This document shows, piece by piece, positions 4,054 through 64,000 of a stretch of DNA of 64,000 bases. The translations under genes were made by a program, and so were the position numbers. The notes under the pieces are model-generated. The model saw nothing but the letters and a program-made list of their open reading frames with translations. It searched no databases and was not told where the DNA came from. The stretch comes from an uncultured Syntrophomonadaceae bacterium (lineage in GTDB: Bacteria > Bacillota > Dethiobacteria > DTU022). Positions within the stretch are counted from its first letter, which is position 1. Every line of letters begins with the position of its first letter. The DNA is taken from contig CAYXKD010000002.1 in assembly GCA_964464625.1 (NCBI GenBank), positions 32,453 through 96,452 on the forward strand, written 5' to 3'.

Positions 4054-5028
4054 ATGCCCGTTGCACTGAAAGCCGCCTTTTTAAAAACAAAGACTGGACA
4101 GCGGATACGGAATAAACGCTTACTATATCTTGACCGTAAACAGTACAGGTCAATGCGTAAAATGATTCTTAACGAATCACCTGAAAAGGCAATCCGATCT
4201 CACTGGGATAGCCACATGAAATACCCTCTTAATCTTAATAAACCGCAGTCATTTAATGAAAAGCTGCAGTGGTTAAAGCTAAACTGGTACGACGAGCGCT
4301 CCCCTGTTTGTGCCAACAAGCACCTGGTCAGGGAATATGTAAGCAGCAAGGGTTTGGACCATATCCTGATCAAGCAGCTTGGATTCTATAAATCCCCCCG
4401 TGAGATTGATTTCAAGGTACTTCCAGACAGATTTGTGCTCAAGCCCTCGCACGATTCAGGACATACAATAATATGTCAGGATAAGAGCAATCTAGACATT
4501 AGAAAAACCAGAAATAATTTAAAGAAATGGCTTTCTGTTGATTACGAATATATGAGTGGTGAATGGGTCTATCGCAGCGAGAAATACATTGTCTGCGAAG
4601 AATATCTGGAAGATAAAGATGTTGGGGAAATAGTAGATTACAAGATTTTTTGTTTCAACGGGGACCCCACGATAATCTGTTTGATCAGTGACCGCGCCCG
4701 GGAAGAGAAAAACGACTTTTATGATCTTGAATGGAACCTCTTGCCCTTCTGTTCCGAAAAGGAACAGAGCGGTAAGATCTTTCCCAAACCATCCAGACTG
4801 GACGATATGATCAGGTATGCAAAATTACTATCCGCAGGTTTTCCTTTTGTACGGGCCGATTTTTACCAGGTTGGTGAAAAAGTTTATTTTGGAGAGCTAA
4901 CGTTTTTTAATGAAGGAGGTTTCTGTAATTTTCAACCGGAAAGCATCGATTTTGAATTAGGCTCATTATTAACTCTACCCCTGGAGAAGTCCCATCCCTG
5001 GGGGATGTTACTTTCTAAAAATCATTAG
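4054..5028 (+). CDS. TupA-like ATP-grasp family protein (teichuronic acid / polysaccharide biosynthesis ATP-grasp)
   Basis: 324 aa with an AAGGGGGA RBS. Conserved blocks are FVLKPSHDSGHTIICQDKS, DYKIFCFNGDP, FYDLEWNLLPF and VRADFYQVGEKVYFGELTFF, characteristic of ATPgrasp_TupA. The gene is clearly lower in GC than its neighbours. Confidence 0.75.
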   Translation: MPVALKAAFLKTKTGQRIRNKRLLYLDRKQYRSMRKMILNESPEKAIRSHWDSHMKYPLNLNKPQSFNEKLQWLKLNWYDERSPVCANKHLVREYVSSKGLDHILIKQLGFYKSPREIDFKVLPDRFVLKPSHDSGHTIICQDKSNLDIRKTRNNLKKWLSVDYEYMSGEWVYRSEKYIVCEEYLEDKDVGEIVDYKIFCFNGDPTIICLISDRAREEKNDFYDLEWNLLPFCSEKEQSGKIFPKPSRLDDMIRYAKLLSAGFPFVRADFYQVGEKVYFGELTFFNEGGFCNFQPESIDFELGSLLTLPLEKSHPWGMLLSKNH

Positions 5029-5121
5029 TGCCGGAACAGGCCTTAAGCTGTAAACTGTAAGCTCTAAGGACGCGCCCCGATAACCTTCACGCACATTTTT
5101 ACTTCCACTGTTTTTCCCGTT

Positions 5122-5153
5122 CTCCCCCTCCCCTCTTGAAAGGGGAGGGGGAG
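5122..5153. terminator. Bidirectional GC-rich hairpin between convergent genes
   Basis: CTCCCCCTCCCCTC-TTGAAA-GGGGAGGGGGAG. It lies between the end of the ATP-grasp gene (+) and the end of the DUF5050 gene (-). The sequence resembles the 3895-3920 hairpin. Confidence 0.45.
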
Positions 5154-5177
5154 TGGGAAATGAATTACCCGTCTAAT

Positions 5178-6272
5178 CTAATCCACCTTTGTCCGGCCGC
5201 TTCCGTCGAGACCCATGCGGTAGAGGCTCTTACCGTCATCGATATTGATGTAGTACATCCATTCGTCAAAAATGAAGATACCGCCGCAATAATCGCTGCT
5301 CAGCTGCTCCTGAGCACTGCCATCGGGCCTGATGCGGCAGATCTCACCGCTGTGCGCCTTACTGTAATAGAGCCATCCCTCCCCACAGTTCAGGAATGCC
5401 GGCTCCACATCGCCCACCCTGGATGCTACGCCGCCCGATAGGCCCATCCGGTAAAGCGAGCGCCCCCCCAGGTAGATTTCCGTCTCAAAGATATCCCCGA
5501 CAAAATAAATATTATCATCCAGTATGTTCATAAAGTATGCATCGCCGCCATAGATCATACTGCGCCCGCCGCTTTCAAGATCGGCTTTGCAAAGCTGCGG
5601 TTTTTCATCGAAACCGCGGTAATAAAGCGAGCCGCCTTCCACATTGAAGAAATCGGCCCGGCTATCTGTCAACAGCTCTTTCCCGCTGCCGTCGGCCTCA
5701 ATGCAGTATATTTTCGGATTCTCTGTGCCGGCTTCCCCATAATAGTAAAGCCTGCCCTCCACCAGCTGCAGATTTGCCGCCCGATCTGGAGATATTACCG
5801 TGCGCCCGCCGCCGTCAAGGTCGATCCGCACAATGGGGCCGTACACTATGAAGGTGAACTCCTCACCCATGAGCTCATCATAGAAAGTTTCGGGCTCTCC
5901 CATGGCCACATAGTAGATATACTGCTCCGTAGCATTGATATACTGGGGGACATCATCGCTCAGTTTCATCCGCCCGCTGCCGTCAAGCCCGGCCCGGTAG
6001 AGCTTTCCTCCATCGGCAGGAGAGCCGTAGTAGATCTCACTGCCCTGCATCGCCACCAGGCCGCCATTTAGAATATTTCCGGCGCTGTTGCCCTGCGCCG
6101 GCCCCGCCTCCTCTTCACTGCTCTCCCCGGGCCCGGGCGAACCGTTTTCCCCATTTTCGACTGCTTCATCTTCCTCTTTCATCAATTCTTTCAGTGCACA
6201 CCCTCCCGGCAGAAAGAGGCAAAGGCACAGTAACACCATAACCGCCGTAAACATGAGAAGTTTTTTATTCAT
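5178..6272 (-). CDS. DUF5050-domain lipoprotein
   Basis: 364 aa. Signal peptide with lipobox (LPGGC). Acidic G/E/S-rich linker. Repeated LYRxGLDGSGRxKL motifs typical of DUF5050 beta-propeller-like repeats. Confidence 0.65.
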   Translation of the reverse strand: MNKKLLMFTAVMVLLCLCLFLPGGCALKELMKEEDEAVENGENGSPGPGESSEEEAGPAQGNSAGNILNGGLVAMQGSEIYYGSPADGGKLYRAGLDGSGRMKLSDDVPQYINATEQYIYYVAMGEPETFYDELMGEEFTFIVYGPIVRIDLDGGGRTVISPDRAANLQLVEGRLYYYGEAGTENPKIYCIEADGSGKELLTDSRADFFNVEGGSLYYRGFDEKPQLCKADLESGGRSMIYGGDAYFMNILDDNIYFVGDIFETEIYLGGRSLYRMGLSGGVASRVGDVEPAFLNCGEGWLYYSKAHSGEICRIRPDGSAQEQLSSDYCGGIFIFDEWMYYINIDDGKSLYRMGLDGSGRTKVD

Positions 6273-6456
6273 TTTTCCGCCCCCTCACCTGTGATTGTGC
6301 TGTGGCAATCACATACCTGTTTTACTTACTCTCCCATAAACAGGAGATAAATTCAACAGTACTTTCAACAATCTGCCGCCCTCTACCCGGCAGGCTTCTC
6401 GTTCCTGGTGAGGTTAAAGGGTGATCCCTCTGCAGCTTTCCTTAAGGCAGGCAGCC

Positions 6457-7608
6457 TTATCCAAGTTTTTCCTTTGCCAGGGCCCGGCCGATAAGCAGCC
6501 GCTGGATCTGCGCCGTGCCCTCGTAAACCTGGAATACTTTCGCATCCCGCATCAGCTTCTCCGCAGGATAATCTTTGACGTAGCCGTAGCCGCCGAAGAT
6601 CTGAGCGGCATCCGTGGTAATGCGCATGACCATGTCGCCGCAGAAAACCTTCGCTATTGCCGCCTCCCTGGAATTGTCCATCCCCTGCTCACCCTTCCAT
6701 GCTGCCTGCCAGGCGAGCAGACGGCCTGCCGCGATATCCTTGGCCATATCCGCCAGCATGAACATAACCGACTGGTGCATGAAGATAGGATGTCCAAACT
6801 GTCCCCGTTCCAGTGCATACTGCAGTGCAACATCCAGCGCCCTGCGAGCCACTCCCACGGCCGAAGCAGCCACCCCGGGGCGGGAATGATTGAAAGTCTG
6901 CATAATGATCCGGAAACCCTCTCCTTCCTCACCGAGCCGGTCCTCTTCGGGAACAACAACATCATCAAAAACAACGTCTGTTGTATCGGCGGCGCGCTGC
7001 CCCATCTTATCCTCTTTTTTACCTACAGAAACACCCTCGGCATTTCTGGGGACGATGAAAGCTGTAATCCCCCGGTGCCCCTTTGACTTGTCCAATGTGG
7101 CAAAAACAACGTAGTAATCGGCCACTCCGCCGTTGGTGATAAAGCACTTGTTGCCGCTGATAACATACTCCCCATTGCGGCGGACCGCCCTGGTCGTCAG
7201 CGCCGCCACATCGGATCCCGCCTCCGGCTCGGTTACGCAAAAAGCCAGTAGCTTCTCATCGCGGCAGGCAGTGCCGAGATATTTCTCTTTCTGGGCAGCG
7301 CTGCCTTTGTTGATCAGCGGAATCGCCGCCAGGCTGTTGATGGCAATGCTGGTTGATATCCCCGAGCACCCTGCGGAGAGCTCCTCGGCAATGAGCAGCT
7401 GGTCAACGGCACCTATACCTCCTCCACCGTACTCCTCTGGAACGGGACCGTAAACCAGGCCGGCCTTGAAAGCCTTTTTCAAGATTTCAGCGGGGAATTC
7501 CCCGCTGCGGTCGTACTCCGCCGCTACCGGAACTATCTCTGCCTCCGTAAAATCGCGGGCCATCTTCTGAATGGCCTCCTGCTCAGGTGTCAACGAGAAA
7601 TCAATCAT
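6457..7608 (-). CDS. Acyl-CoA dehydrogenase (short-chain/butyryl-CoA dehydrogenase-like)
   Basis: 383 aa. Contains YxGxGYVKDYPAEKLMRDAKVxQIYEGTxQIQRL and CVTEPEAGSD motifs of the ACAD family. Confidence 0.9.
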   Translation of the reverse strand: MIDFSLTPEQEAIQKMARDFTEAEIVPVAAEYDRSGEFPAEILKKAFKAGLVYGPVPEEYGGGGIGAVDQLLIAEELSAGCSGISTSIAINSLAAIPLINKGSAAQKEKYLGTACRDEKLLAFCVTEPEAGSDVAALTTRAVRRNGEYVISGNKCFITNGGVADYYVVFATLDKSKGHRGITAFIVPRNAEGVSVGKKEDKMGQRAADTTDVVFDDVVVPEEDRLGEEGEGFRIIMQTFNHSRPGVAASAVGVARRALDVALQYALERGQFGHPIFMHQSVMFMLADMAKDIAAGRLLAWQAAWKGEQGMDNSREAAIAKVFCGDMVMRITTDAAQIFGGYGYVKDYPAEKLMRDAKVFQVYEGTAQIQRLLIGRALAKEKLG

Positions 7609-7714
7609 GGTAAACCTCCTGTTAAATTATTGTGAGGGACAATTCTGCCCTTTGTTGATTATATCTTAAATAAAAGCGGTTGTCTGCAAATTTAAAATCT
7701 TCTTCTCCACTTTT

Positions 7715-7763
7715 CCATGATTGGTCCATGATTATCCCATGATTTAGCCATACTGCCATGATT
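7715..7763. promoter_or_regulatory. Array of four to five CCATGATT direct repeats with 11-bp phasing. Candidate transcription-factor binding array upstream of the acyl-CoA dehydrogenase.
   Basis: CCATGATT at 7715, 7726, 7737 and 7756, with a degenerate CCATACT at 7748. It lies ~110-155 bp upstream of the ACAD start codon (7608). Confidence 0.3.
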
Positions 7764-7884
7764 TGACGACAATAACCTTTTCGCGGTGGACACCCCTGCC
7801 CCCGGCTATGTGCCCGGCACTATCAACCCGCGCCCGGGACTCTCGTCCCTCCCCTTAGACTGCACCCATGCCTGGCGCACCTAG

Positions 7885-7919
7885 AAAAATTGGCAGGGAG
7901 CTATTTCACTCCCTGCCAA
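7885..7919 (-). terminator. Intrinsic terminator of groEL
   Basis: Minus-strand TTGGCAGGGAG-TGAAATAG-CTCCCTGCCAA followed by TTTTT. It lies 60 nt downstream of the groEL stop. Confidence 0.6.
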
Positions 7920-7978
7920 TCCTTACCGGCAGCTTTTCCCGCCGGTTTTTCAAGCTAAAACAGCTTTATTTTACATCT

Positions 7979-9604
<1,626 letters not shown>

Positions 9605-13469: not shown

Positions 13470-14261
13470 TTGATCCTTGATTTTCTAAAGGGTATGGCTG
13501 TTGGAATTGCCTTTGTTCTGCCCGGCATAAGCGCCGGAACAGTCATCCTTATTCTCGGCTTTTACAAACAATTCATTGATGATATCTCCAGATTCCACCT
13601 GCGGCCCTACCTGCCCCATCTTTGCGGCGGTGCTTTGGCCGCCCTGGCCGGTGTTAAGATCATCGCCTATCTCCTGGAAAATTGCAAAGACCTGCTGCTC
13701 GCCTTTTTGCTGGGCCTGCTGGTTGCCTCTCTTCGTGTAATCCTGTTCCAGGAGGGTAAAATGATCAAATTCCGCCCCCTCACTGTTCTCGCCGGTATTG
13801 CCGGCTTTTTGGTGGCCTGGTTTGCCTTCAGCAATCCCGGCCCGGGCTGGAGCCCCTTGCCCGCCGTTTCCATCTATCACTTCTTTGCCGGCGGCGCCGT
13901 GGCCGGAGCCACCATGATCCTGCCGGGAATTTCCGGCAGTTCATCCCTGGTGATCATGAACATGTACGACGATGTCATCTTTGCAGTGAATCACTGGGAG
14001 TGGCTGAATCTCGCTGTTTTTACCGCCGGGGCGCTGCTGGGTATCTTTGGGCTGGCCCGCCTTCTCTCCGCCCTGTACAGGCGCTATCAGGAGGCCCTCT
14101 CCCTGGTGCTGACGGGCCTGGTCCTCGGTTCAATCCGTTCCCTTTTGCCCTCATCGTTTAGCGCCGGCGTCCTTATTGCAGCCCTTGCCGGAGCCGCTAT
14201 CGTGCTGGCCCTGACTATCCCCCGCCGCCCCAAAAGCGGTGAAAAAACTATTTCCCCCTAG
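13470..14261 (+). CDS. DUF368-domain integral membrane protein
   Basis: 263 aa. Two internally repeated halves each carry VLPGISAGT and ILPGISGSSS motifs typical of DUF368. Confidence 0.7.
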   Translation: MILDFLKGMAVGIAFVLPGISAGTVILILGFYKQFIDDISRFHLRPYLPHLCGGALAALAGVKIIAYLLENCKDLLLAFLLGLLVASLRVILFQEGKMIKFRPLTVLAGIAGFLVAWFAFSNPGPGWSPLPAVSIYHFFAGGAVAGATMILPGISGSSSLVIMNMYDDVIFAVNHWEWLNLAVFTAGALLGIFGLARLLSALYRRYQEALSLVLTGLVLGSIRSLLPSSFSAGVLIAALAGAAIVLALTIPRRPKSGEKTISP

Positions 14262-14416
14262 ACAGACAACAAACAATCCCCTGCAATCCCCTGCACCCGC
14301 CGCCCTCCTTATCCGTCCCTCTGCACACCCTTTGCCCTCCCTCCCCAGCCGGGTAAATTCTTTGCGGCAACAGCATCACACTGTCAGGAAGCACTGCATT
14401 TTAATTCTTTTATAAT

Positions 14417-14440
14417 AAAAAAGCCCCCGCAGGGGCTTCA
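14417..14440 (-). terminator. Intrinsic terminator downstream of the glucosaminidase gene (may also act bidirectionally)
   Basis: AAAAAA-GCCCC-CGCA-GGGGC-TTCAG. On the minus strand the hairpin is followed by TTTTTT. Confidence 0.55.
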
Positions 14441-14461
14441 GTTATCTATATTCCATATTTA

Positions 14462-16384
14462 CTATTCTTGATAGCGCGGTATATCAAAAGTAAGACTGTA
14501 GCTGTCAAGCATGTCGTAGAGATTTCTGATCCGCGAAACCTGCTTGGCCGCCCAGCCCATGTCAGTGGCATACTGGTGTGTCCCCGGCGAATTGGGGTTC
14601 CAGCGCATTTTGTAAAGAGTATTCTGACTATAGGAGGGGTGATTCACGTAACTGGCCGAGGCAAACTTTGCCCCGCCCAGAATCGCCGCTTCCGGTGTGA
14701 ACCAGCGCTCCTGGTAAGCCCTTAAAGCGCCGTAATAGTTGGGGTTGCTGTCGTAGGCCCCGATACCGAACATATTATAGACTTTCACAGTCCCTTGACC
14801 AGGGAAAAGGTTATCCTGATCGGGAAAGTCCGATCCGTTGGCCAACGCGCTGGTGCCGTTTCCTGTCTCATGCAGCGCCAGGGAGACGAGAAAGATCTCA
14901 TTGATATTGTTATCCCGGCTCGCCTGCATAAAGTGAGCGCCTGTCCCATTGAGGATTCCCTTGCCGGAGAGAATCCTATCCAGATCCGCTACTGTCGAGC
15001 CTGCGCTGCCGGAAAGCAGCAAAAACTGAAACATGGAGGTAACAGAAAAAGATCCGTCAACAACCTGGCAGTATTTACCGCAGACCCATCCTTCCCTGTC
15101 GCTCACCCTGATCTTATACCAGACACCTTCGCTGCCCGGTTCGGTGCCCCCTTCAGCCTCAGCCTGTCCCAGAATGGGATAGACCTCGTTCTGCCATACG
15201 CTCATAAGATTGCCGCCGGCATCTTTCAGCTGGGGGCTCCCGGTGGTGGGCCGCTCCCGGAGCCTTAAATTCGGTTCGGCAAGAATGCGAATTGACGCCG
15301 CCCCGCTGCCGGTATAATTCATATCAATAAAGTTGTAGGGATCAATGTAGCAGGCCACATCCTCCCGCAGGGCCCTTTGCCAGCCGCCTCCGTAGCTATC
15401 TGTCACCGGCGGGCTTCCCGAAGCCATCTGGATATCAATCATCCGGTTAAGGGTATATCCGTAGCGGCTAAAATTGACTGTACACCCCGAACGGATGGAG
15501 ACGGCGCCGAGATAAACAATGCGCTGCAGCTCTTTAAGAGAAGCAAAAGGCTTTAGCGGCAGTAGCCGCGAACCCAATTGATCCTGCTCCGCCGCCGTCA
15601 GGCTGAAACGTCCCAAACCGAGCCCGAGCACAGCATCATACTCAAGCAAGGCATTTTTCATATCAGCGGCGCTGGAAGCCCCATTCACCGCCTGCATGCC
15701 TTTATCCGCTGTGGGCTTTGCCGCCGCCACCGCAGCGTTGAAGGCGCCTTTAAACTGCTCCAGGGAGCCAAACCCCTGCCCCGGTCTTTGAGCCAGCACC
15801 TCATTTAAAACAGCAGTCTGTTTATCGCGGTTGAGCCGGTTATAATCAGCCAGGTTCAGGCCCAGCTGCGAGCCCCAGGAGATAACCAGCGCCTCCAGAT
15901 CACCGGCGCTGGCAGCACCGTTCAGCTCAGCCAGGATATCGACTGTCGCATCAATTGTTTTCTCCGTAAACAATAGATTACCATCATCACCCCTAGTGAC
16001 AACATAAATCTTTTTGGGCATAATTGCCATTTTTGACTCGTTGCTAGAAGTGTAAGCATTACAATCGAAAGATCTTTTGCTAAAGACGGCATCAATGTAA
16101 GCATCCAGAACATCTTCATAATCTATGTAACCCCTGGTACTGTCGAACAGCGCTACAACACCTGCTGTCTCACACTTGTAATACTCATAAAAAGGAGCAG
16201 GATCGCCAAGTATATATATCACATATGAATCTATAAGATCTTCATAATTCATTTCATAATATTTGCCGTCCTTACCCTTCAAAACATAATCCTCCACTGC
16301 TGCCAAAGCCGAAGTACCTGCTATAACCAAGAGCAGTCCAATTAGAATGGAAAGTATAATTCTAGGAATCTTATATCTAATCAT
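14462..16384 (-). CDS. Cell wall hydrolase with a C-terminal mannosyl-glycoprotein endo-beta-N-acetylglucosaminidase (glucosaminidase) domain
   Basis: 640 aa. N-terminal signal peptide. C-terminal FLVSLALHETGNGTSALA...NMFGIGAYDSNP matches the glucosaminidase (LytD/FlgJ-type) domain. A central GWVCGKYCQV segment suggests an SH3b-like module. Confidence 0.75.
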   Translation of the reverse strand: MIRYKIPRIILSILIGLLLVIAGTSALAAVEDYVLKGKDGKYYEMNYEDLIDSYVIYILGDPAPFYEYYKCETAGVVALFDSTRGYIDYEDVLDAYIDAVFSKRSFDCNAYTSSNESKMAIMPKKIYVVTRGDDGNLLFTEKTIDATVDILAELNGAASAGDLEALVISWGSQLGLNLADYNRLNRDKQTAVLNEVLAQRPGQGFGSLEQFKGAFNAAVAAAKPTADKGMQAVNGASSAADMKNALLEYDAVLGLGLGRFSLTAAEQDQLGSRLLPLKPFASLKELQRIVYLGAVSIRSGCTVNFSRYGYTLNRMIDIQMASGSPPVTDSYGGGWQRALREDVACYIDPYNFIDMNYTGSGAASIRILAEPNLRLRERPTTGSPQLKDAGGNLMSVWQNEVYPILGQAEAEGGTEPGSEGVWYKIRVSDREGWVCGKYCQVVDGSFSVTSMFQFLLLSGSAGSTVADLDRILSGKGILNGTGAHFMQASRDNNINEIFLVSLALHETGNGTSALANGSDFPDQDNLFPGQGTVKVYNMFGIGAYDSNPNYYGALRAYQERWFTPEAAILGGAKFASASYVNHPSYSQNTLYKMRWNPNSPGTHQYATDMGWAAKQVSRIRNLYDMLDSYSLTFDIPRYQE

Positions 16385-43762: not shown

Positions 43763-46120
43763 TCAATGCGCCTCCTGCAAATTAAACTCCAGAAGCAGCC
43801 TCGAAACAGGAACTTTTACACCGTAAGAAGGGGAGTGGTAACCGCCCTTTATATGCCCCCTGACAGAGGCGCCGCCGCTTATAACTTCCATATAAACGCG
43901 CCCTTTTCCTGTCGACAGAATATAGCGCTGCGGCGTGATCTTCTCAACAGCCACACCCGGCGCCATGTTAAAAGAGAGGAAAAAGCTCCCCTCTGAAATT
44001 TGATCCTCCACGATGACATTCTCTGCCGCTATGTAAAAACTGCGCCGGTGAATGCTGCCGTAGCCCCGGTGCATCCCTGAAAAATAGCCGGGCCCAACGC
44101 CTGTAATCTCCGCCCCCGCTTTATCGGGCAGGCTGAAAAGCCCCTCCATCCCCGGAGGCCACTCTTTCTGCTCCCTGCCGGGCAAGAGCAGGCTGTTATG
44201 CGCCGCCGTGGCCCGAAAATAGTTGCGCTCTTCAACAGAAGCGGTGTACACATAGCTTCCCGGATCCACAATCAGATCATCGCCGCGGACATTTAACTCA
44301 AAAGAGAGAATGTCATTGTGCGAATGCACGCCCCATCCCCCGGCAGCGCCGCTGCTGCAGGAGATAACGGCATGAAAGGGCGGAACATTGAAAACAGCCA
44401 CCCCTGCAGAGGGAAAACAGACCGGCTGCTCCCGGCCCCCCTCCAGTGCGGCGCCGCCCCCCTTAAAACCATCCAGGGTAAATATTGTGCGCACCGCCGG
44501 CATTTTTTCCGAAAGGGCAAACCCCTCTTCCGAAGCCTGCCCCGCTTTCACCTGCGGCCGCTCACCCCTCCCGGCGGCTGCACTGCGCAACTGATCCATA
44601 ATATCCTCATCCACTGCTGCAGTCAACAGCTCCGCAGCGGGCCGGTAAAGTTCCGCCGCCGCCAATAGATCCTCCCGGCCGAATATGTGCCCGGCCACCG
44701 CTACCAGGGGCCTGAAATCGCGGTGCTCCTCCCGGTAAATAGCGCTCTCTTCATCAAGGGCGGCGGTAAGAATGAGCTTGTGGAAACGCCCGTTATCAAA
44801 ATCGCCCAGCTGCGGCGCCCTCCCATCGGGCTTGAGCAGGGCAGCCGCATATTCAGCCGCCTTGAGCGCCCTCTCCCAGAAAGATGGCGAAAAGATCAGG
44901 GCGGCGGCGCGGCCCCCTTCACCCGCCCCCAACTTCTGCGCAATCTCCTCCCTGCGCCCCCGCTCCATCTGGAGCAGCAGCAGGGAGGCCGAATAAAATA
45001 TTTCCGTTGCCAGGCGGTGGTAACCGGTGGAGCCCTCAAAATTGCTCCCATCAGGCTGAAACTGCCTCTCTATCTCCCGGGAAAATTCGCGGACAGCAAA
45101 GTTCAAGGAGCGGCGGCTCTGCGGCAGCCAGGGGCAGGCCGCCTCCAGGTAAATCTGCCCCGCCAGCCCCGCCAGGTAATGGTTGCCCACAAAAAGATCC
45201 CTCTTTTCAGGATTGCGCCGCAGGAAAAGGGCATGCTTGTACAGGCTCCAGTTTAACAGACGGCTGAACTCAGGAGTGAACACCTCAGAATCTGCAAATA
45301 GTTTGAGCCCCCAGAGCCAGTTCACCGCCCTGATCGCCGCCTCCATGGGGCAGCTCCAGTTTGCACCGCAGTAAGGGGCATTGGAGACAATCCAGTCTGT
45401 GAGCTGCAGCACAAACTCAGCCGCCAGCGCAGCGGCCCGCTGCGGCTCCTCTTCAAGCCGGTAAGCCAGGCCCATAGCCCCTAAATGCTGAAAGCGGGAG
45501 AGCTCCCAGGGCACCTTGATATCGGCCCCCTCTGTCCGCCCGATGGGGATATCACGGTACCAGGCCAGGGGATCCCAGCGGTAACCGGAGCGGAAATCCA
45601 GTTGCCAGTCAATGGGGCGGTAGCTCTGCAGCCGCTCATAAAGGATCTTCTTCCCCTCACTCCCGGGCGCCCCCGCAGCGCCCCCGCCCGGACAAAGCAG
45701 GCGGCGCATCATCTCCAACACAGCCCCCTCCGCCGCCGCCCCGGGCGACATCTCCATGCGGCGCCCGGCAAAGCCCGCTGCCTCTGTATAATAGCCCACC
45801 TCAACAGGTCCCGAGCCCAGCAGGTCAAAACGGTGCGCAGAAGCCTCAGCAGCATAATGGCTGATGAGCCGCCGCCTCTCCGGCGGCAGCGCCCCTGCAA
45901 GAGCGGCGCTGTCAACAGCGCCGGGCAGCCCCGTCAGAGAAAAATCGGCCGGCACCCCCGGCGCCCGGGGTACGCCTCCCTGCCGGAAAAGATTGCGGTA
46001 GCGCCCTGCAGCCGCCTTTTGCCGCCGGCGCAGAAAAGGCGAAAGCGCCCTCTGCCCCACCTTCAAAAAAATCAGGCGGGGCGGCAGCTCAAGGAGGCGG
46101 CGCAGCGAAAAACCCTTCAA
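43763..46120 (-). CDS. Heparinase II/III-like family protein (alginate-lyase-like N-domain plus Hepar_II_III C-domain)
   Basis: 785 aa. A W/Y/N-rich (alpha/alpha)-toroid-like N-half (NAPYCGANW...AIRAVNWLW) and a beta-sandwich C-half. The stop overlaps the wecC end in an ATGA-type coupling arrangement. Confidence 0.6.
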   Translation of the reverse strand: MKGFSLRRLLELPPRLIFLKVGQRALSPFLRRRQKAAAGRYRNLFRQGGVPRAPGVPADFSLTGLPGAVDSAALAGALPPERRRLISHYAAEASAHRFDLLGSGPVEVGYYTEAAGFAGRRMEMSPGAAAEGAVLEMMRRLLCPGGGAAGAPGSEGKKILYERLQSYRPIDWQLDFRSGYRWDPLAWYRDIPIGRTEGADIKVPWELSRFQHLGAMGLAYRLEEEPQRAAALAAEFVLQLTDWIVSNAPYCGANWSCPMEAAIRAVNWLWGLKLFADSEVFTPEFSRLLNWSLYKHALFLRRNPEKRDLFVGNHYLAGLAGQIYLEAACPWLPQSRRSLNFAVREFSREIERQFQPDGSNFEGSTGYHRLATEIFYSASLLLLQMERGRREEIAQKLGAGEGGRAAALIFSPSFWERALKAAEYAAALLKPDGRAPQLGDFDNGRFHKLILTAALDEESAIYREEHRDFRPLVAVAGHIFGREDLLAAAELYRPAAELLTAAVDEDIMDQLRSAAAGRGERPQVKAGQASEEGFALSEKMPAVRTIFTLDGFKGGGAALEGGREQPVCFPSAGVAVFNVPPFHAVISCSSGAAGGWGVHSHNDILSFELNVRGDDLIVDPGSYVYTASVEERNYFRATAAHNSLLLPGREQKEWPPGMEGLFSLPDKAGAEITGVGPGYFSGMHRGYGSIHRRSFYIAAENVIVEDQISEGSFFLSFNMAPGVAVEKITPQRYILSTGKGRVYMEVISGGASVRGHIKGGYHSPSYGVKVPVSRLLLEFNLQEAH

Positions 46121-50160: not shown

Positions 50161-51156
50161 TCAGGATTGCTCTTCCTCTTTGACCGCCATAATCTTAAAA
50201 GGTTCCCTTCGGAAAAGCTTTTTTACCGCCAGGAAGAGAAAATAAAACAGCGCCGGAACGAAATGATAGCTCACAGCCAGGCGCACCTGCTTCAGGTGGG
50301 AGAGCACCGCCTTGAAGTTGCCCTGCCTGATCTTCCGGAGCAGAAAGCCCGTGGAATCGACGGCCAGCCCGTACTTGATCCTCTCCACTTCCCAACATTT
50401 AAGCTGCACATTGCTATACCTTTTCAGATTATCATATAACATGATATAACCCTCTGAAAAGGGGGTTCCCTGCTCCAGGCAGTAGGACATCCCCGAGCCC
50501 GGGTTCTGCCCGGTCCGGCTCAGCGGGCTGTGCACAAAAGCAAGGTCATAATCATTTAAAATCAGGTAGAAAAGCTCCGTGTCAGAGTGATAGAGATCGG
50601 TGCGGAAACCGCCGTGCCTTAAGAATGCCTCATGTGAAAGCATGAGCGAGGCCGGCGAAAATATGGTTTCCCTGGTCTCCTCTTCCAGCAGGAGCCGGCG
50701 CAGAAAAAGGGGGCCCCGCACCACAGTCTCCTCCGGGGAGAGCGATCCCAGGAGCAGCCTCTCGCCGTCGTAGCACTGCGAGGAAACAATGCCTGTATTT
50801 TCCCCCAGGGATGCCGCCTCAACCATCTTCTCCAGACAGTCGGGAAAAAGTATGTCATCGGCGCCGATATATTTCAGCCAGCGGCTTTCACCGGAGGCAT
50901 AAGAGGCCACCTTCATAAAATTTTCAAGGCGAAAGATGGTCTCTTCATTTCGAAAGAGCTTGATCCGCTCATCTTTCGTATATTCGCGGATAATCTCATT
51001 TGTTCCATCCGTGGAGGCATTATCCACAATGATAAATTCGAAATCTTTAAATGTTTGTGCCAGAACACTCTCAATGGCGCCTCTTACAAAAGCTGCCCCA
51101 TTGTACACGGGCAGCAGCACACTTACCAGCGGCATCTTATACAGCTCCTCTTTCAA
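50161..51156 (-). CDS. GT2 family glycosyltransferase
   Basis: 331 aa. VSVLLPVYNGAAFV...IIVDNASTDGT...GADDILFPDCL matches the GT2 DxD architecture. Confidence 0.8.
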   Translation of the reverse strand: MKEELYKMPLVSVLLPVYNGAAFVRGAIESVLAQTFKDFEFIIVDNASTDGTNEIIREYTKDERIKLFRNEETIFRLENFMKVASYASGESRWLKYIGADDILFPDCLEKMVEAASLGENTGIVSSQCYDGERLLLGSLSPEETVVRGPLFLRRLLLEEETRETIFSPASLMLSHEAFLRHGGFRTDLYHSDTELFYLILNDYDLAFVHSPLSRTGQNPGSGMSYCLEQGTPFSEGYIMLYDNLKRYSNVQLKCWEVERIKYGLAVDSTGFLLRKIRQGNFKAVLSHLKQVRLAVSYHFVPALFYFLFLAVKKLFRREPFKIMAVKEEEQS

Positions 51157-51167
51157 GATAGCATCAC

Positions 51168-52402
51168 TTACACTAGCTGCAGCTTCGGAATGGGGATAAT
51201 AAATTTACCGCCTGCAGCACGGTATTCAGACTGCTGCTCCAGGATTTCAGCAGCAAAATTCCAGGCCAGCAGCAGAACATAATCGGGCTGCTTTTCTAAA
51301 AGCAGCCGCGGATCGCCGATGGGGATGCGACTTCCCGGCATATAGAGGCCCTGTTTGTAGGTGCTGCGGTCAACTACAAAATCAATGAGCTCCCCGCCGA
51401 TCTTAAAATAGTTCAGCAGGGTGGCCCCTTTGGCCGCCGCACCGTAAGCGGCAATGGTACAGCCCTCCCCCTTCAGCCTTTCAAGCAGCTCGCAAAGCTC
51501 GATTTTCAATTTTTCAACGCGCCCCGCAAAATCCCGGTAATAGGCCGGCCGCTCCATCCCTATCTCCGATTCCTCCTGGAGAATCCGCTCCACAGAGCCG
51601 CCCTGCGCCAGGCCCTCATGGGCGGCAAAAAGTCGCAGCGAGCCGCCGTGTATGCTGATCCTCTCCACATCATGAAGCACCATCCCGTTTTTCCGGAAAA
51701 GGCGATGCAGCGCCGTCACTGAAAAATAGCAGAGGTGCTCATGATAGATGGTATCAAACTCCCCTTTCTCCACCATATCCCTTACATAGGGCACCTCGAT
51801 AACCGCAAGGCCGCCCTCCTTCAAAAACACTTTCAGCCCCTGCACAAAACCGTTCAGGTCAGGCACATGGGCCAGCACATTATTGGCAAAGATGAGATCA
51901 GCCTGCAGCCCCTCGTCAAGAAGCGCCTCTGCAAAATCCCTGCCGAAAAATTCGCTCCGCGTGGGGATGCCCTTTTCCCGGGCCACCCCGGCGATATTCT
52001 CCGCCGGCTCGATCCCCAGCACAGGGATTCCCTTCTCCTTGAAGTTCTGCAGCAGGTAGCCGTCATTGCTGGCCACCTCCGCCACCAGGCTGCCCCGGTC
52101 AAGGGATCTCTCCCTGATCATCCGCCCTGCTATTTCAGCGGCATTTTTAAGGGTTGTATCGGAAAAAGAAGAGAAATAAAGATATTCGCGAAAAAGCTGC
52201 TCCGGGGAGACATTCTCCCTGATCTGCACCAGCGAGCAATCTGTACAGAAGAGCAGGTTCAGCGGATAGCGCTTCTCCGTAATGTGAAGATCCTCTTCGG
52301 CAAGAAGCATATTTGCCAGAGGCGTCTCTCCCAATGAAAGGACCATTTCCAGAGCAGACGATCCGCAGAGGCGGCAGCTCTCATTAGCGGTGTGCGCCAT
52401 CA
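51168..52402 (-). CDS. NDP-hexose C-methyltransferase (TylC3/Coq5-like SAM-dependent C-methyltransferase with an N-terminal Zn-binding domain)
   Basis: Start at ATG 52402 ([16 protein letters not shown]) with a GGAGG RBS. N-terminal CxxC...CxxC. Class I SAM-binding motif ([10 protein letters not shown]). The C-terminal C-methyltransferase domain pattern is present. Confidence 0.7.
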
Positions 52403-53394
52403 TCAACCTCCAGGTATCTCCTGTACCAGGCAATGGTCCGCTCCAGGCCCTCCTCCATCTCAAAAAGAGGAGACCAGCCCAGAATGCGCCTTGCCTTGAC
52501 GGCGCTTAAGTACTGGTGCCTGATTTCATGGGAAGCCTCGTTTAAAACAAGAGGCTCCAGGGGCGAGCGGAGCAGCTTCAAGATGAGCTCCACCACGCCG
52601 AGCACATCCACCTGAATCTCATTGGAAAAGTTAAAGGCCTCGCCGGCCAGCTCCGGCTTTTCAGCCAGCGCCTCCGCCAGCAGCATATAGGCGGCGGCGG
52701 CATCCTCAATATAGAAATAGTCGCGCACAAACTTACCGTCGGAGCGGATTACAGGGCGCTCCCCCTTTAGAACAGAGCGGATCGTCCCCGGAACAATGCG
52801 GTTCCAGTTCAGATCCCCCCCGCCGTAAAAGTTACCGCAGCGCGTTATAGCCACAGGCAGGCCGTACGTGGAGGCATAGCTCCGGGAGAGCAGATCAAAG
52901 CAGGACTTGCTCACATCATAGGGATGGCGCCCCTGCAGGGGAGCGCTCTCATCATAAGGCAGGTTTTCATGTTCGCCGTAAGCCTTATCCGATGAAGCCA
53001 CCACAACCTGCTTGACCAGGGGGCTGCGCCGGCAGGCCTCCAGCATAGCCCAGCCGCCGCCGATATTCGTCTGAAATGTTGACACAGGATTGCGGTTGGC
53101 AATTCCCACAATGGTCTGCGCCGCCAGGTGAAAAACAGTCTCGATCTCATACTCGCCCAGAATCCTCTCCAGCAGGGGCTGATCGCAGATATCGCCCCGG
53201 ACCAGCTTGACCCTCTCAGAGAGCCCCTCGCTGATGAGCTGCGATTGGGGGACCCAGTCCCGCACCAGGCAGACAACATCAGCCCTGTATTCCAATAATC
53301 TGCGGACGAGCCAGCCGCCCAGCAGCCCTGTTGCACCGGTGACCAGGGCGGGCCGATCCCGCCAGAATTTTTCCTTTGTGTGCCGCTCTACCAT
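52384..53394 (-). CDS. rfbG: CDP-glucose 4,6-dehydratase
   Basis: 336 aa. [20 protein letters not shown] and the extended SDR YxxxK region are diagnostic of RfbG. Confidence 0.85.
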
Positions 53395-54152
53395 ATCTTC
53401 CAGGGCGCCTCCCCGCTATTCCAGTAATCTTCCAGTATCTTTAGCTCGCGGTAGGTGTCCATGCACTGCCAGAAATCATAATGGCGATAGGCCATCATCT
53501 CTCCCGCAGCTGCGATACGGCGCAGAGGCTCCTGTTCCCAGGGCGGATCGCCGCTGATATAGTCAAAAATCCCCCGCTCCAATATAAAGAAGCCGCCATT
53601 GATCCACCCCTCTCCAGTCAGGGGTTTCTCCAGAAACTCCGTCACCCTGTCCTCCTGGAAATTCATGCTCCCGAAACGGGCCGGCGGCCGCACCGCCGTA
53701 ACGGTAACCAGCCTGCCGTGGGAGCGGTGAAAATCGAGCAGCGCCGCCAGATCCACATTGGAAACCCCGTCGCCATAGGTAAGCATAAAGGTATCATCGC
53801 CAAGCCAGGGCGCAAGCCTTTTGATGCGCCCGCCTGTGTTGGTCAAAAGGCCCGTCTCCACAAGGTGGACCTTCCAGTCCTCCTTGCCGCTGTTATGGAC
53901 TGTAACCCGGCCGTCGGAAAGGTCGATGGTGATATCCCCGTTCATGCAATAATAGTCATGAAAATAGCGCTTAATCACTTCACTTTTATATCCCAGGGCC
54001 ACGATAAATTCTTTGAACCCGTAATGGGCGTAATGCTTCATAATATGCCAGATAATGGGGCGCCCGCCGATCTCCACCATCGGTTTCGGTCTGACCGCAG
54101 TCTCCTCAGCCAGCCGCGTGCCCATACCCCCGGCCAGAATTACCACCTTCAC
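53388..54152 (-). CDS. rfbF: Glucose-1-phosphate cytidylyltransferase
   Basis: GTG start at 54152 ([14 protein letters not shown]) with a [28 protein letters not shown] is diagnostic of RfbF. Confidence 0.9.
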
Positions 54153-57629: not shown

Positions 57630-58538
57630 TCAGGAGAAGGGATTCTCTTTCCACCACCTGATGGTCTCTTCCAGGCCCTGCTCCAGCGTGTATGCCGGCT
57701 TCCACCCCACCTGCCTGCGCAAAAGTTCTGTCTCCGCCACCAGGATAGGGGGCTCCCTCTCCGGTACGGGCCGTGCTCCGAGGCGGAGCAGATCTTGCCC
57801 GTCCAACTGATGGGCAATAGCATTGATAATTGTCTTTAACGCCACCGCTTCACCGGAGGCAATATTTACAGGCCCCTCAAAATCGCTTTCCAGCAATTTC
57901 ACCAGGGCGGCGGCGACATCTTTGACGTAAAGAAAATCCCGGAGCTGCTTGCCATGGGTGCACTCCGCAGGTTCACCGCGCAGCAGGGAATTGATCACAG
58001 AGGGCACAAGGCGCCCGGGGTGTTCATGAGGCCCGTACAAAAAGAAAATACGGCCCCAGGCTGCGCTGAGCCCGCCCTCAAGGCTCAATGCATCCACCAT
58101 CACCTGCAGGGCATGCTTGCCCGCCCCGTAGAGAGAGCGGGGCCCCGCCGGGGTCAACTCCTCAGAGCAGTACCCGTAGCGCCAGTCATATTCGGCACAG
58201 CTTCCGCTGACCACAACGCGGCGGCCGCCGCAGTTTATAAATTCGCGAAGCAGCTGCAGGCTGGCCTCAACCCAGCGAATGTTCTCCAGGGAGCTCCAGC
58301 AGGAACCGGGAGTCACATACCAGGCCAGGTGCAGAAGCTTTGTCGGAGCGATCTTTTCCATGAGCTTCCTCACATGGGCAGGTTCCGTCAAATCGGCACG
58401 GTGCCAGTGAAGGCCCTCCACATTATCGGAAAAACTTCTCGTGGAGACAGCGTGCACTTCATAGCCCTTTTCCAGCATAAGTTCCAGGCAGTGCCTGCCG
58501 ATAAAGCCTGCCGCACCTGTAAGAAGCACTTTTGCCAT
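57630..58538 (-). CDS. NAD-dependent epimerase/dehydratase family protein (nucleotide-sugar reductase/epimerase)
   Basis: 302 aa. VLLTGAAGFIGRH plus the YxxxK (YGAGKHA) SDR catalytic motif. Confidence 0.8.
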   Translation of the reverse strand: MAKVLLTGAAGFIGRHCLELMLEKGYEVHAVSTRSFSDNVEGLHWHRADLTEPAHVRKLMEKIAPTKLLHLAWYVTPGSCWSSLENIRWVEASLQLLREFINCGGRRVVVSGSCAEYDWRYGYCSEELTPAGPRSLYGAGKHALQVMVDALSLEGGLSAAWGRIFFLYGPHEHPGRLVPSVINSLLRGEPAECTHGKQLRDFLYVKDVAAALVKLLESDFEGPVNIASGEAVALKTIINAIAHQLDGQDLLRLGARPVPEREPPILVAETELLRRQVGWKPAYTLEQGLEETIRWWKENPFS

Positions 58539-61239: not shown

Positions 61240-62352
61240 TTAGCTGGATGCCGCAATCGCTTCTTTTAAGCTTTCTACTACATATTTTGTCTGTTCTTCC
61301 TTCAGGTTTGTATGAAACGGCAGGGCCAGCACCTCCCGGCCCGCCTGCTCCGTTATTGGGAAAATGCCCTCCTTGAAACCGAACAGCTCCCGGTAATAAG
61401 GCTGCAAATGTATGGGAGTAAAGTAAGGTTTACACTGCACGCCGCGCCGCTTCATAAAAGCCAGTACCCTGTCCCTGTGAATTTCTCCATCAATACGAAT
61501 GACATAGACAAACCAGCTCATCTCTGCATCGGCTGAAATGTAAGGTGTTGTTACACCCTCCACATCTTGCAGCAGACAGTTATACTCTGCAGCCACGGCA
61601 GTACGCTTAGCCAGTATTTCCGGCAGACGCTGCATCTGAGCCAGCCCTAAGGCGCAGGAAAGCTCATTCAAGCGGTAGTTAAAACCGAGCCTTTCGTGAT
61701 CCAGCCAGCCTCCACCTTCACGGCGGCCCTGATTGCGCATGCTGCGACATAGGGTGGCAATCTCCTCATCGTCCACCACCACCATTCCGCCCTCACCCGT
61801 GGTGATCTGCTTGTTGGGGTAAAAGGCAAAGACAGATCCATCGCCAAAGCTGCCTGCAGCGCGACCTCGATAGTTTGCTCCAAGCGCTTCACAGGCATCC
61901 TCGATCACCCTGAGGTCGCGCCTTTTTGCAATCTCCATGATCGGATCCATATCCGCCGGCTGACCAAAGGCATGGACCGGCAGTATAGCTTTCGTGCGCG
62001 AAGTAATTGCCCCTTCAATAAGCGAGGGATCTATGTTTAGAGTCTGCGGATCAATGTCCACAAAGACAGGTTTGGCCCTTTCAAAAAGCATACAGTTGGC
62101 TGAAGCAATGAAGCTGAAAGGGGTGGTGATCACCTCGTCCCCATCTCTTATACCCAGCGCCCGGACAAGGAGATGCAGTCCGCTGGTCCCGCTGTTAACG
62201 GCAATACCGAAACGCCGCCCGGACAGGATCGCCATCTCTTGTTCAAATTTCTCCATCTTCGGCCCGAGGGCAAGATGTCTTGATTTTAATACTTCATTAA
62301 CTGCTTCTATTTCTTTTTCTGTAATATCCGGTGCGGATAAAGAAATGAACAC
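61240..62352 (-). CDS. DegT/DnrJ/EryC1/StrS family PLP-dependent sugar aminotransferase
   Basis: 370 aa. SAPDITEKEI...VNSGTSGLHL...YPNKQITTGEGG (PLP Lys) blocks. Confidence 0.9.
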   Translation of the reverse strand: MFISLSAPDITEKEIEAVNEVLKSRHLALGPKMEKFEQEMAILSGRRFGIAVNSGTSGLHLLVRALGIRDGDEVITTPFSFIASANCMLFERAKPVFVDIDPQTLNIDPSLIEGAITSRTKAILPVHAFGQPADMDPIMEIAKRRDLRVIEDACEALGANYRGRAAGSFGDGSVFAFYPNKQITTGEGGMVVVDDEEIATLCRSMRNQGRREGGGWLDHERLGFNYRLNELSCALGLAQMQRLPEILAKRTAVAAEYNCLLQDVEGVTTPYISADAEMSWFVYVIRIDGEIHRDRVLAFMKRRGVQCKPYFTPIHLQPYYRELFGFKEGIFPITEQAGREVLALPFHTNLKEEQTKYVVESLKEAIAASS

Positions 62353-62408
62353 TATCTTTCCTCCCAGATTATATTCAATAATAAAACAAACGGATTTTAA
62401 AATATGCT

Positions 62409-63173
62409 CTACTCTTGACAGCGTTCCAATTTATCTTGGGTGATCAAGCGATGACGTGCAAAAAGAGCAAAAACCGATAACACCAGGCCAATTAGGAATG
62501 CAACAGCAATGTATATTATTTTATTTACAGGAATAATTTGAGCAGTTCTGCCGCTCCCATCCAGCCAAATATAATCGCTCAAGTTTAACTGCTCACTCAG
62601 CTCTAGTAAATTGAAATCTATAAGTTGGATCTGCAGCAGGCAGTCAGCTTTTTTCTCAATATAATTCTTATAGATAGGATCTTCTTCTAACAATTCTGTG
62701 ATTTGCTCATCTCTGGACAGCAAATATTCAGCTGTAACTTCATCAAGATAGTGTAAAAGTTTTTGTTTTCTTTCTTTTTCCAGTATCATTTGTTCAAAAC
62801 GATAATCAGACACAGCTTCAATAATGGCTTTACCCGTTCTTTCTACCATATTGACACAGACTTCGGGATCATTATATTTACCTGTGATCTGTAATACTGA
62901 ATCGTTACCGGAAAAGTGATTCACCTTTATAAAAGGTGTTAAAAGATCCCTATCTTCAGTTATCTCTTTTTGTTCGATAAGTTCGACTACTTCCTTACCC
63001 TTGATCTGGTACGGAAGCAGGTTAAGAAGCACACTATATTCATAATCAGGAATAATTATGAACATGGTATATAAAAAGGCAGTCAGCGTAAAAATAGCAG
63101 TTACCGCTAAGACAAAGTATTTTCCGCGCCAAAGAACCTGAAGTATTTCCCTGTGATCTATTTCATTTTCCAT
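62409..63173 (-). CDS. Wzz/CpsC-type chain-length determinant protein (Gram-positive capsule type)
   Basis: Start at ATG 63173 (MENEIDHREILQVLWRGKYF), with a GGGGGAT RBS. N- and C-terminal TM. AT-rich gene. Confidence 0.6.
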   Translation of the reverse strand: MENEIDHREILQVLWRGKYFVLAVTAIFTLTAFLYTMFIIIPDYEYSVLLNLLPYQIKGKEVVELIEQKEITEDRDLLTPFIKVNHFSGNDSVLQITGKYNDPEVCVNMVERTGKAIIEAVSDYRFEQMILEKERKQKLLHYLDEVTAEYLLSRDEQITELLEEDPIYKNYIEKKADCLLQIQLIDFNLLELSEQLNLSDYIWLDGSGRTAQIIPVNKIIYIAVAFLIGLVLSVFALFARHRLITQDKLERCQE

Positions 63174-63243
63174 TTTTATCCCCCACAGCAAAGTCTATTA
63201 ATGTGTCCACAACCTAAATTATTCCACAGGTCACTTTTAACAC

Positions 63244-63903
63244 TCAAACCCCCGTGGCCGACAGAATTTTACTGAACTTTTGAAATAAATCCCGGTAATC
63301 AAGTTCATCCGGAAGCACATTGATCAATTTATCAGGAGAGGTAATCTGTGTTGTCGCGAAAGCAATCGCAGGACTGGGTACGATAATCGAATCTGACCGG
63401 CAGTATGCCTTTAAAGCCCTGCGGCGCATTTGGAAAGAGAAAAAACTATTTAGTATACTATCTCTGGATTCACCATAAAAGTCCTCAACTCCCCGAATTT
63501 CCAAAATTAAAGGCACCTGGTAAAAGGAACTCAGCGAATAGGCACTTCCAGCCAAGGCGAGCGGAGGTGATGAAGCCAGTACCAGATCGGGTGTAGGAAG
63601 ATTGCGAGCCTGCCGCACGGCCTTGCGGGCAAAAACAGATGATACCCGGCGCCGTCTGTTATCGAGGTTTAAGACGACTATGGCTGTGCCGCCTTGCTGC
63701 AACAGCCCGATCTTTTTCTTGCCCAATAATAGTCCCAACTCGGAATTACCGGTAATAACAGTAACCTTGTGACCCTGTTCCGCAAGGCGGCGGCTAATCT
63801 CAAAAAAACGCCTTCCCGGAGAAGAACCGTTAATTGCAAAGAACTGATGCAACATTAGTATATGCAGTTGCCCTCTCCCCCAGTTTAAGCCCTTTGGAAC
63901 CAC
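63244..63903 (-). CDS. GT-B N-terminal (Glyco_trans_4-like) domain protein. Either half of a split glycosyltransferase or a truncated gene.
   Basis: 219 aa. ILMLHQFFAINGSSPGRRFFEISRRLAEQGHKVTVITG matches the GT4 N-domain pattern. No C-terminal catalytic domain follows; the next gene is Wzz-like. Confidence 0.4.
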   Translation of the reverse strand: MVPKGLNWGRGQLHILMLHQFFAINGSSPGRRFFEISRRLAEQGHKVTVITGNSELGLLLGKKKIGLLQQGGTAIVVLNLDNRRRRVSSVFARKAVRQARNLPTPDLVLASSPPLALAGSAYSLSSFYQVPLILEIRGVEDFYGESRDSILNSFFSFQMRRRALKAYCRSDSIIVPSPAIAFATTQITSPDKLINVLPDELDYRDLFQKFSKILSATGV

Positions 63904-64000
63904 AACTACCTTTATTCCACAAAGGAAGTCATTAACCTGCCTGCTACATAATTACAGCTCAAGTTCACGATTGCATAAAGCATAGGCTAAATTAGTAATA

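Follow-up and report, generated by a model that had tools for sequence, protein, structure and literature searches.

A probable four-enzyme route to a CDP-linked 3-C-methyl-6-deoxyhexose in the polysaccharide locus of an uncultured Syntrophomonadaceae bacterium

In 2017, Li and colleagues reportedly described a four-gene operon of Bacillus cereus whose sugars, cereose and cillose, are 3-C-methyl-6-deoxy-gulose and 3-C-methyl-6-deoxy-allose. PMC7725333 counts CDP-cereose and CDP-cillose (CDP, cytidine diphosphate) among the pathways with experimental characterisation, the two being set apart solely by what the C4-reductase makes. It also lists, as consecutive proteins of B. cereus ATCC 14579, a cytidylyltransferase of 255 amino acids (Q81B33), a CDP-glucose 4,6-dehydratase of 351 (Q81B32), a C-methyltransferase of 407 (Q81B31) and a 4-reductase of 302 (Q81B30), and puts the prevalence of the two pathways at 81 genomes (0.63%) from 22 species. 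Here we describe a related set of genes in a 64,000-nucleotide stretch of DNA from an uncultured Syntrophomonadaceae bacterium (contig CAYXKD010000002.1, positions 32,453 to 96,452), called the window below. With a probability of roughly 0.7, we propose that the window encodes a four-enzyme route to a CDP-3-C-methyl-6-deoxyhexose of the CDP-cereose/CDP-cillose kind. The first-pass annotation of this DNA took such chemistry to be established for thymidine diphosphate (TDP) sugars only; this does not hold, as it is established for CDP-sugars too, the B. cereus CDP-cereose/CDP-cillose operon having been published in 2017. The genes on which our proposal rests, together with the glycosyltransferase gene that follows them, are these:

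53388-54152, minus strand: rfbF (ddhA), glucose-1-phosphate cytidylyltransferase, 254 amino acids, GTG start

52384-53394, minus strand: SDR336, a divergent RfbG-like short-chain dehydrogenase/reductase (SDR) of 336 amino acids, predicted CDP-glucose 4,6-dehydratase

51168-52403 (or 52400), minus strand: TcaB9/TylC3-type C-methyltransferase of 410-411 amino acids, dependent on S-adenosylmethionine (SAM) and assigned to nucleoside diphosphate (NDP)-4-keto-hexoses

57630-58538, minus strand: SDR302, an extended SDR of 302 amino acids, predicted CDP-3-C-methyl-4-keto-6-deoxyhexose 4-reductase

50161-51135, minus strand: GT2 glycosyltransferase, 324 amino acids (PF00535, 92 bits)

The open reading frame list and the sequence bear out the earlier observation of the first three genes and place them on the minus strand. 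The GTG start of rfbF lies seven bases past a ribosome-binding site, GGGAGGAG, and the stop of this gene shares the seven nucleotides ATGGTAG with the start of SDR336. The SDR336 stop in turn lies 17-20 nucleotides within the methyltransferase gene, which can start at either of two neighbouring ATG codons behind a GGAGG site (the NCBI protein is the 410-amino-acid form), and the GT2 gene starts 33 nucleotides beyond the methyltransferase stop. The overlapping stops and starts can be read directly, and they suggest that the three genes may be translationally coupled, as the first-pass annotation has it. The four pathway genes do not form one contiguous operon of the CDP-cereose type: SDR302 stands two genes upstream of rfbF, separated from it by genes for a PglF-like dehydratase and a UDP-glucose dehydrogenase (ugd; UDP, uridine diphosphate). 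From SDR302 through the methyltransferase, every gene runs in one direction, and a promoter and terminator scan showed no persuasive terminator among them, although its counts were near chance expectation and hence uninformative on operon boundaries.

As a stand-in for the B. cereus ATCC 14579 proteins, we used the operon of Bacillus sp. N5-665 (L024; a 5.5-Mb record labelled plasmid). It encodes RfbF, RfbG, a methyltransferase and a reductase of 255, 351, 407 and 307 amino acids, the first three lengths being equal to those of Q81B33, Q81B32 and Q81B31. Against the equivalog models, RfbF of this operon reaches 478 bits and RfbG 496, and a methyltransferase encoded on a B. cereus plasmid matches that of the operon at 93% identity. 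All four enzyme types are reciprocal best matches between the window and this operon (7e-89, 7e-45, 6e-95 and 7e-83).

RfbF of the window scores 361.7 bits against the equivalog model TIGR02623 (cutoff 300.25); it is 51% identical to RfbF of the N5-665 operon and 89-93% identical to those of two related metagenome-assembled genomes (MAGs; L001 and L002). Using peptide patterns taken from the window methyltransferase, which biases the sample to its relatives, we recovered 20 genome loci, 18 of them with enough upstream sequence to score, and rfbF lies upstream of the methyltransferase gene in all 18, across seven or more phyla. It is also annotated upstream of this gene in Leisingera, Brachyspira and Sinorhizobium meliloti records. 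By contrast, one Streptomyces homologue of the methyltransferase adjoins a thymidylyltransferase gene and another a 2,3-dehydratase gene. Because RfbF passes its equivalog cutoff and its gene lies upstream of the methyltransferase gene in 18/18 loci, the nucleotide is predicted to be CDP, in support of the linkage first proposed for this locus. A pathway using deoxythymidine diphosphate (dTDP) was considered and ruled out, as the window has no thymidylyltransferase and does have rfbF.

For SDR336, the best NCBIfam match is TIGR02622, followed by the dTDP-glucose 4,6-dehydratase family (179 bits). Its best solved relatives are the CDP-glucose 4,6-dehydratases 1rkx and 1wvg (Yersinia/Salmonella; E 1.5e-40 and 6.8e-37), with dTDP-glucose dehydratases next and CDP-tyvelose 2-epimerase far lower (E 1.5e-22 and 5e-22). 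Residues S135-D136-K137, Y159 and K163 align with the TSDK and YSNSK motifs of 1rkx, which hold the catalytic residues of the Yersinia enzyme (Asp135, Lys136, Tyr159 and Lys163 in that enzyme). At the same alignment position, D-E stands in RmlB and C-S in the GalE-like SDRs that other loci encode. A further loop of SDR336 aligns with the RfbG-type RAGNVIGGGDW (the GN(V/F)xGGGD or, more loosely, GNxxGGGD motif), where RmlB reads RCSNNYGPYQY. We therefore looked upon the family signature as that of RfbG, and SDR336 is predicted to be a divergent CDP-glucose 4,6-dehydratase. Its subfamily also occurs in the Terriglobia loci L003 and L005, where the proteins are 54-55% identical to SDR336 and likewise below threshold (206.4 bits against TIGR02622 for the L003 protein). 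Since the score is below the curated TIGR02622 cutoff, SDR336 bears only the generic NCBI name "NAD-dependent epimerase/dehydratase family protein."

The methyltransferase matches PF08421 (zinc domain; 77.0 bits), PF13489 (class I methyltransferase; 61.2 bits) and PF08484 (C-methyltransferase C-terminal domain; 193.9 bits), each match clearing its gathering cutoff, and so has the complete three-domain architecture; no NCBIfam model matched it, and its NCBI name is "class I SAM-dependent methyltransferase." The only PDB matches below 1e-70 are MtmC (6e-92), KijD1 (2e-79) and TcaB9 (5e-76), the next being at E 5e-4. The zinc ligands C10, C13, C53 and C56 are conserved, and Y74, H179, Y220, E222 and H223 are the equivalents of Tyr76, His181, Tyr222, Glu224 and His225 of TcaB9, which we take to be its catalytic residues in the numbering of Bruender and Holden (2012). 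In a neighbor-joining tree of 43 sequences (100 bootstraps; 23-62% support along the backbone), the window enzyme falls within the primary C-methyltransferase clade, with distant paralogues outside (95%). It groups first with L001 and L002, and the Terriglobia enzymes come next (87%). The Bacillus enzyme joins the Brachyspira plasmid and those loci in which an RmlC-like gene separates rfbG from the methyltransferase gene (100%), and a group of their own (62%) is made up of KijD1, MtmC and the enzyme of the C-1027 cluster. With its weak backbone, the tree neither supports nor rejects a single origin of the rfbF-linked methyltransferases; it shows that the enzyme is a C-methyltransferase not belonging to the TDP group of actinomycetes, and hardly anything beyond that. 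The tree agrees with the first-pass assignment of the enzyme to the NDP-hexose C-methyltransferase family, as do the C-terminal domain, the catalytic residues and the three best solved relatives; neither clustering with O- or N-methyltransferases nor loss of the C-terminal domain was seen. An O- or N-methyltransferase identity was ruled out on the domain and residue evidence. Homologues are numerous: more than 8,000 lie below 1e-20, the top 120 all being about 60% identical and spread over many phyla, and the family comprises 4,814 clusters at 50% identity (E<=1e-30). In some proteins of 550-930 amino acids (P0143, P0154, P0185, P0188, P0208 and P0221) the methyltransferase module forms the C-terminal part, so it is at times fused to another domain, perhaps the upstream SDR.

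SDR302 was the enzyme that the first-pass annotation thought might complete the pathway, and the comparison with other genomes favors this role. It is 48% identical (4e-94) to the SDR that follows the methyltransferase gene in L019, and 41-48% identical to the methyltransferase-adjoining reductases of Bacillus, a Pseudomonadota MAG and Methylocystis. When the Bacillus and L019 reductases were searched back against the window, SDR302 came out on top, the runner-up being another window SDR at 5e-22. Homologues of SDR302 directly abut the methyltransferase gene in Bacillus, L019, L013 and Methylocystis. In a plasmid collection, a homologue (E<=1e-40) occurs in 12 of 72,556 records; it adjoins a methyltransferase homologue in 10 of these and lies within 5 kb of one in 1 more. 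The position of SDR302 is conserved in the related contig L029. Its closest solved relative is distant (UDP-xylose synthase, 92 bits).

From these relationships, we propose the following scheme. RfbF is predicted to form CDP-D-glucose from cytidine triphosphate (CTP) and glucose-1-phosphate. SDR336 would oxidize C4 and eliminate the C6 hydroxyl to give CDP-4-keto-6-deoxy-D-glucose. We infer that the methyltransferase acts on C3 of the NDP-4-keto-6-deoxyhexose, a position not readable from sequence: the C3 proton would be removed via an enolate beside the 4-keto group, and the methyl group of SAM would be transferred to C3. SDR302 would then reduce the 4-keto group. The GT2 enzyme probably inserts the sugar into a Wzx/Wzy polysaccharide, and a LytR-CpsA-Psr (LCP) enzyme would attach the polymer to the cell wall. 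While the gene content, the families of the proteins and the conserved linkage are observed, the substrates, the methylated position, the configuration of the product and the acceptor are those that this scheme would require.

Several observations weigh against this scheme. SDR336 scores 200.4 bits against TIGR02622, under the cutoff of 278.45, and the corresponding proteins of the N5-665 operon and of L019 reach 495.8 and 478.5 bits; SDR336 is only 30-32% identical to canonical RfbG. The methyltransferase is only about 43% identical to that of the N5-665 operon and lies in a different subclade from it, on a weakly supported tree backbone. SDR302 is only about 42% identical to the reductase of that operon (7e-83; 41-42% across our estimates), and it stands apart from the rfbF-SDR336-methyltransferase genes and could serve a UDP-sugar branch.

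This last point leads to an alternative in which the pathway starts in the same way and the 4-keto group is not reduced by SDR302. Instead, the aminotransferase encoded at 61240-62352 would convert the methylated intermediate to a 4-amino-4,6-dideoxy-3-C-methyl sugar, or the methyltransferase itself would carry out the reduction, with SDR302 working in a UDP-sugar branch with the PglF-like dehydratase and Ugd. The position of SDR302, directly upstream of the PglF-like dehydratase gene and not contiguous with rfbF-SDR336-methyltransferase, fits this arrangement, as do an aminotransferase gene directly after the methyltransferase gene in L012 and, in the two Terriglobia loci (L003 and L005), downstream homologues of the window aminotransferase. 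MtmC, the best solved relative of the methyltransferase, is bifunctional. However, in four lineages a reductase gene abuts the methyltransferase gene, and SDR302 is the clear reciprocal best match of these reductases; 11 of the 12 plasmid records with a close SDR302 homologue have a methyltransferase homologue within 5 kb. The aminotransferase best matches PseC and LegC, which are UDP-sugar enzymes, fitting a pairing with the PglF-like enzyme. We consider this alternative unlikely.

A second alternative concerns SDR336, which might be not a 4,6-dehydratase but a CDP-hexose 4-oxidoreductase or epimerase, the product then being a C-methyl hexose with the C6 hydroxyl still in place, or another CDP-sugar. 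The sub-cutoff score, the generic name and the distance from canonical RfbG described above would be explained in this way, and the middle enzyme is variable among related loci, being a clearly non-dehydratase SDR in many and a radical SAM enzyme in Brachyspira. Against this, the S-D-K residues, Y159/K163 and the GNxxGGGD loop match those of CDP-glucose 4,6-dehydratases, whereas the non-dehydratase SDRs do not have them; the two top family matches of SDR336 are both 4,6-dehydratases, and CDP-tyvelose 2-epimerase is a much weaker match. We regard such a function as decidedly improbable. That the methyltransferase acts on a carbon other than C3, such as C5 in the noviose and C-1027 sugar pathways, to give a 5-C-methyl sugar is highly improbable: the family does hold C5 enzymes, its catalytic residues are common to all members and therefore do not tell one methyl position from another, and L025, the methyltransferase of the C-1027 cluster, which we take to be the C5 enzyme SgcA3, groups with the C3-methylating MtmC at 100% bootstrap, so that phylogeny would not separate the position if it is one; but the three solved relatives (MtmC, KijD1 and TcaB9) are all C3 enzymes, and the sole characterised CDP-linked member reportedly makes 3-C-methyl sugars, according to Li and colleagues in 2017.

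The loci in which rfbF accompanies the methyltransferase gene have three main layouts. The first comprises rfbF, a dehydratase gene and the methyltransferase gene, with an adjoining reductase gene in Bacillus, and is found in the window, L001, L002, L029 and Bacillus. In the second (L012-L016 and L019), this set is extended by the gene of an RmlC-like epimerase and, after the methyltransferase gene, by one for a reductase or an aminotransferase; an RmlC-like gene also lies downstream of the methyltransferase gene in the Terriglobia loci L003 and L005. In the third, rfbF is combined with the gene of a GalE-like SDR that does not have the dehydratase residues, and the methyltransferase genes are two or three paralogues. 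This layout is seen in L006, L007 (6065-11626), L008-L011, L018, L020, L022 (S. meliloti pSymB; 5155-8230 and 13639-14772) and L028 (a Leisingera plasmid; 4136-9601). The SDR in these loci has 345-357 amino acids and the motif SSCSNYG and does not have the dehydratase D-K pair; the TcaB9-like methyltransferase is 47-55% identical to that of the window, and in most of the loci one or two paralogous methyltransferases come next, 22-27% identical, with the zinc cysteines and His/Glu/His retained. On the Brachyspira hyodysenteriae plasmid pZH1179 (L027; 3527-7212), rfbF is followed by genes for a radical SAM/SPASM protein (367 amino acids), an RmlC-family epimerase and a TcaB9-like methyltransferase, the radical SAM enzyme being in place of the SDR dehydratase. 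On megaplasmids from the B. cereus group, the cereose-type operon is present in incomplete form: Bacillus bombysepticus pBb (L021; 6366-9135) carries the methyltransferase and reductase genes together with a fragment of rfbF, and exosporium-type genes (CsxC and BC_2427 families) are near, and a B. cereus plasmid (L023; 6001-7224) has the methyltransferase alone, beside an IS200/IS605 transposase gene.

In the window, the pathway genes are part of a minus-strand polysaccharide locus. Its upstream part encodes a Wzz-like protein, a DegT-family aminotransferase, SDR302, the PglF-like dehydratase and UDP-glucose dehydrogenase; the middle part encodes RfbF, SDR336, the methyltransferase, GT2, a TuaH-like glycosyltransferase and a Wzx flippase; and the rest encodes a UDP-ManNAc dehydrogenase, a heparinase II/III-like protein, glycosyltransferases, a Wzy-like protein, a priming phosphotransferase and an LCP ligase. 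Three further features of this locus are mentioned here by position:

61240-62352: DegT-family aminotransferase (PseC 339 bits, LegC 288 bits; both UDP-sugar 4-aminotransferases)

43763-46120, minus strand: heparinase II/III-like protein (PF16889 and PF07940), 785 amino acids, between the UDP-ManNAc dehydrogenase and GT1 genes and in the same place in L029

34225-36114 and 36191-37933, both minus strand: at the downstream end, an asparagine synthase homologue (glutamine amidotransferase type) and the LCP ligase with a C-terminal Big_2 domain

The last two genes point to amidation of a sugar and to a polymer that is linked to the wall. The gene order of the locus is kept in L029, and the closest genome locus belongs to a Syntrophomonadaceae MAG. 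The G+C content is 0.42 at 62001-64000, which holds the Wzz-like and GT4 genes, vs 0.53-0.62 elsewhere in the locus. In L002, from a related Bacillota MAG, an insertion at 1713-3536 between ugd and rfbF (a helix-turn-helix protein, an ImmA-like protein and a 221-amino-acid open reading frame) breaks the otherwise conserved order. GT2 follows the methyltransferase in L001, L002 and L029, with 77-90% identity, and from this arrangement it would be a candidate transferase for the methylated sugar. With an RmlC-like query, we found nothing better than E 0.57 in the 64-kb window; the same query has matches in 8 other loci. An L-series sugar was ruled out by the missing RmlC-like gene, and since a 3,5-epimerase is missing from the window, a D-series sugar is expected.

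The comparison has a practical value for annotation: SDR336, the methyltransferase and the displaced SDR302 can be read together as a CDP-cereose-type pathway with no step missing. Thousands of environmental homologues share the linkage of rfbF to the methyltransferase. The first-pass annotation called a CDP-linked C-methyl-branched sugar rare, which stands for characterised glycans, at 0.63% of genomes in the survey of PMC7725333, and fails for sequence space, with the 4,814 methyltransferase clusters given above. Because this linkage is so widespread, bacterial surface glycans probably contain C-methyl deoxysugars far more often than that strict survey, with its 0.6% of genomes, would indicate. 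It is also conceivable, though we put it forward only tentatively and think it doubtful, that the joint product of SDR336, the methyltransferase and SDR302 is a CDP-3-C-methyl-6-deoxyhexose with a configuration other than that of cereose or cillose; the methyltransferase subclade is about 60% conserved over many phyla, yet only 43% identical to the B. cereus-type enzyme, and the reductase is only 42% identical. If that were true, the sugar would be new to described glycans, an uncultured member of the Bacillota resembling Syntrophomonadaceae would display it on a wall polysaccharide anchored by LCP, and its chemistry would be common to a large environmental methyltransferase clade.

Among known systems, the actinomycete TDP-sugar C-3 methyltransferases TcaB9, KijD1, MtmC and TylC3 share with the window enzyme the three-domain fold, the zinc Cys4 site and the Tyr/His/Tyr/Glu/His set, at 37-39% full-length identity. 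They differ in that they act on dTDP-sugars and are encoded beside thymidylyltransferase or 2,3-dehydratase genes, whereas the window methyltransferase sits with rfbF, and in that they form a separate group in the neighbor-joining tree, with only 62% support. S. meliloti pSymB carries SMb21416-SMb21418, annotated ddhA, ddhB and NDP-hexose 3-C-methyltransferase, which resemble our locus in having rfbF, an SDR gene and a methyltransferase 55% identical to that of the window; the middle SDR is however GalE-like, without the dehydratase D-K pair, and a paralogous methyltransferase gene lies nearby, so this is probably a different pathway. CDP-vinelose of Azotobacter vinelandii, known since the 1960s, is CDP-6-deoxy-3-C-methyl-2-O-methyl-L-talose and thus another CDP-linked 3-C-methyl-6-deoxyhexose. 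It belongs to the L-series and is O-methylated, so an epimerase and an O-methyltransferase are needed, whereas the window has no RmlC-like gene; to our knowledge, the vinelose genes have not been assigned. For virenose (6-deoxy-3-C-methyl-D-gulose) of Coxiella burnetii, an in silico pathway has been proposed in which a TylCIII-like enzyme methylates C3 of an NDP-4-keto-6-deoxyhexose and 4-ketoreduction follows (PMC3539893). This sugar is likewise a 3-C-methyl-6-deoxyhexose, of gulo configuration, but the proposed nucleotide is TDP or GDP (guanosine diphosphate), not CDP, and the likeness is drawn by description to a pathway that is itself only predicted.

The B. cereus-type operon is the nearest of these systems, sharing with the window the four enzyme types, the lack of a 3,5-epimerase and an origin in Bacillota. 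As measured on the N5-665 operon, the identities are 51% for RfbF, 32% for the dehydratase, 43% for the methyltransferase and 42% for the reductase, and the values of 42-43% are too low to infer the stereochemistry of the product from that of the B. cereus type. The pathway is not new in kind, its chemistry, its enzyme families and its CDP linkage all being established already. What differs here is that the dehydratase belongs to a divergent, sub-threshold subfamily and the methyltransferase to another subclade, that the reductase gene is displaced two genes upstream, outside the operon, and that, in this MAG of an uncultured Bacillota, the genes lie in a Wzx/Wzy polysaccharide locus that includes an LCP ligase, whereas the B. 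cereus operon serves the decoration of spore glycoproteins.

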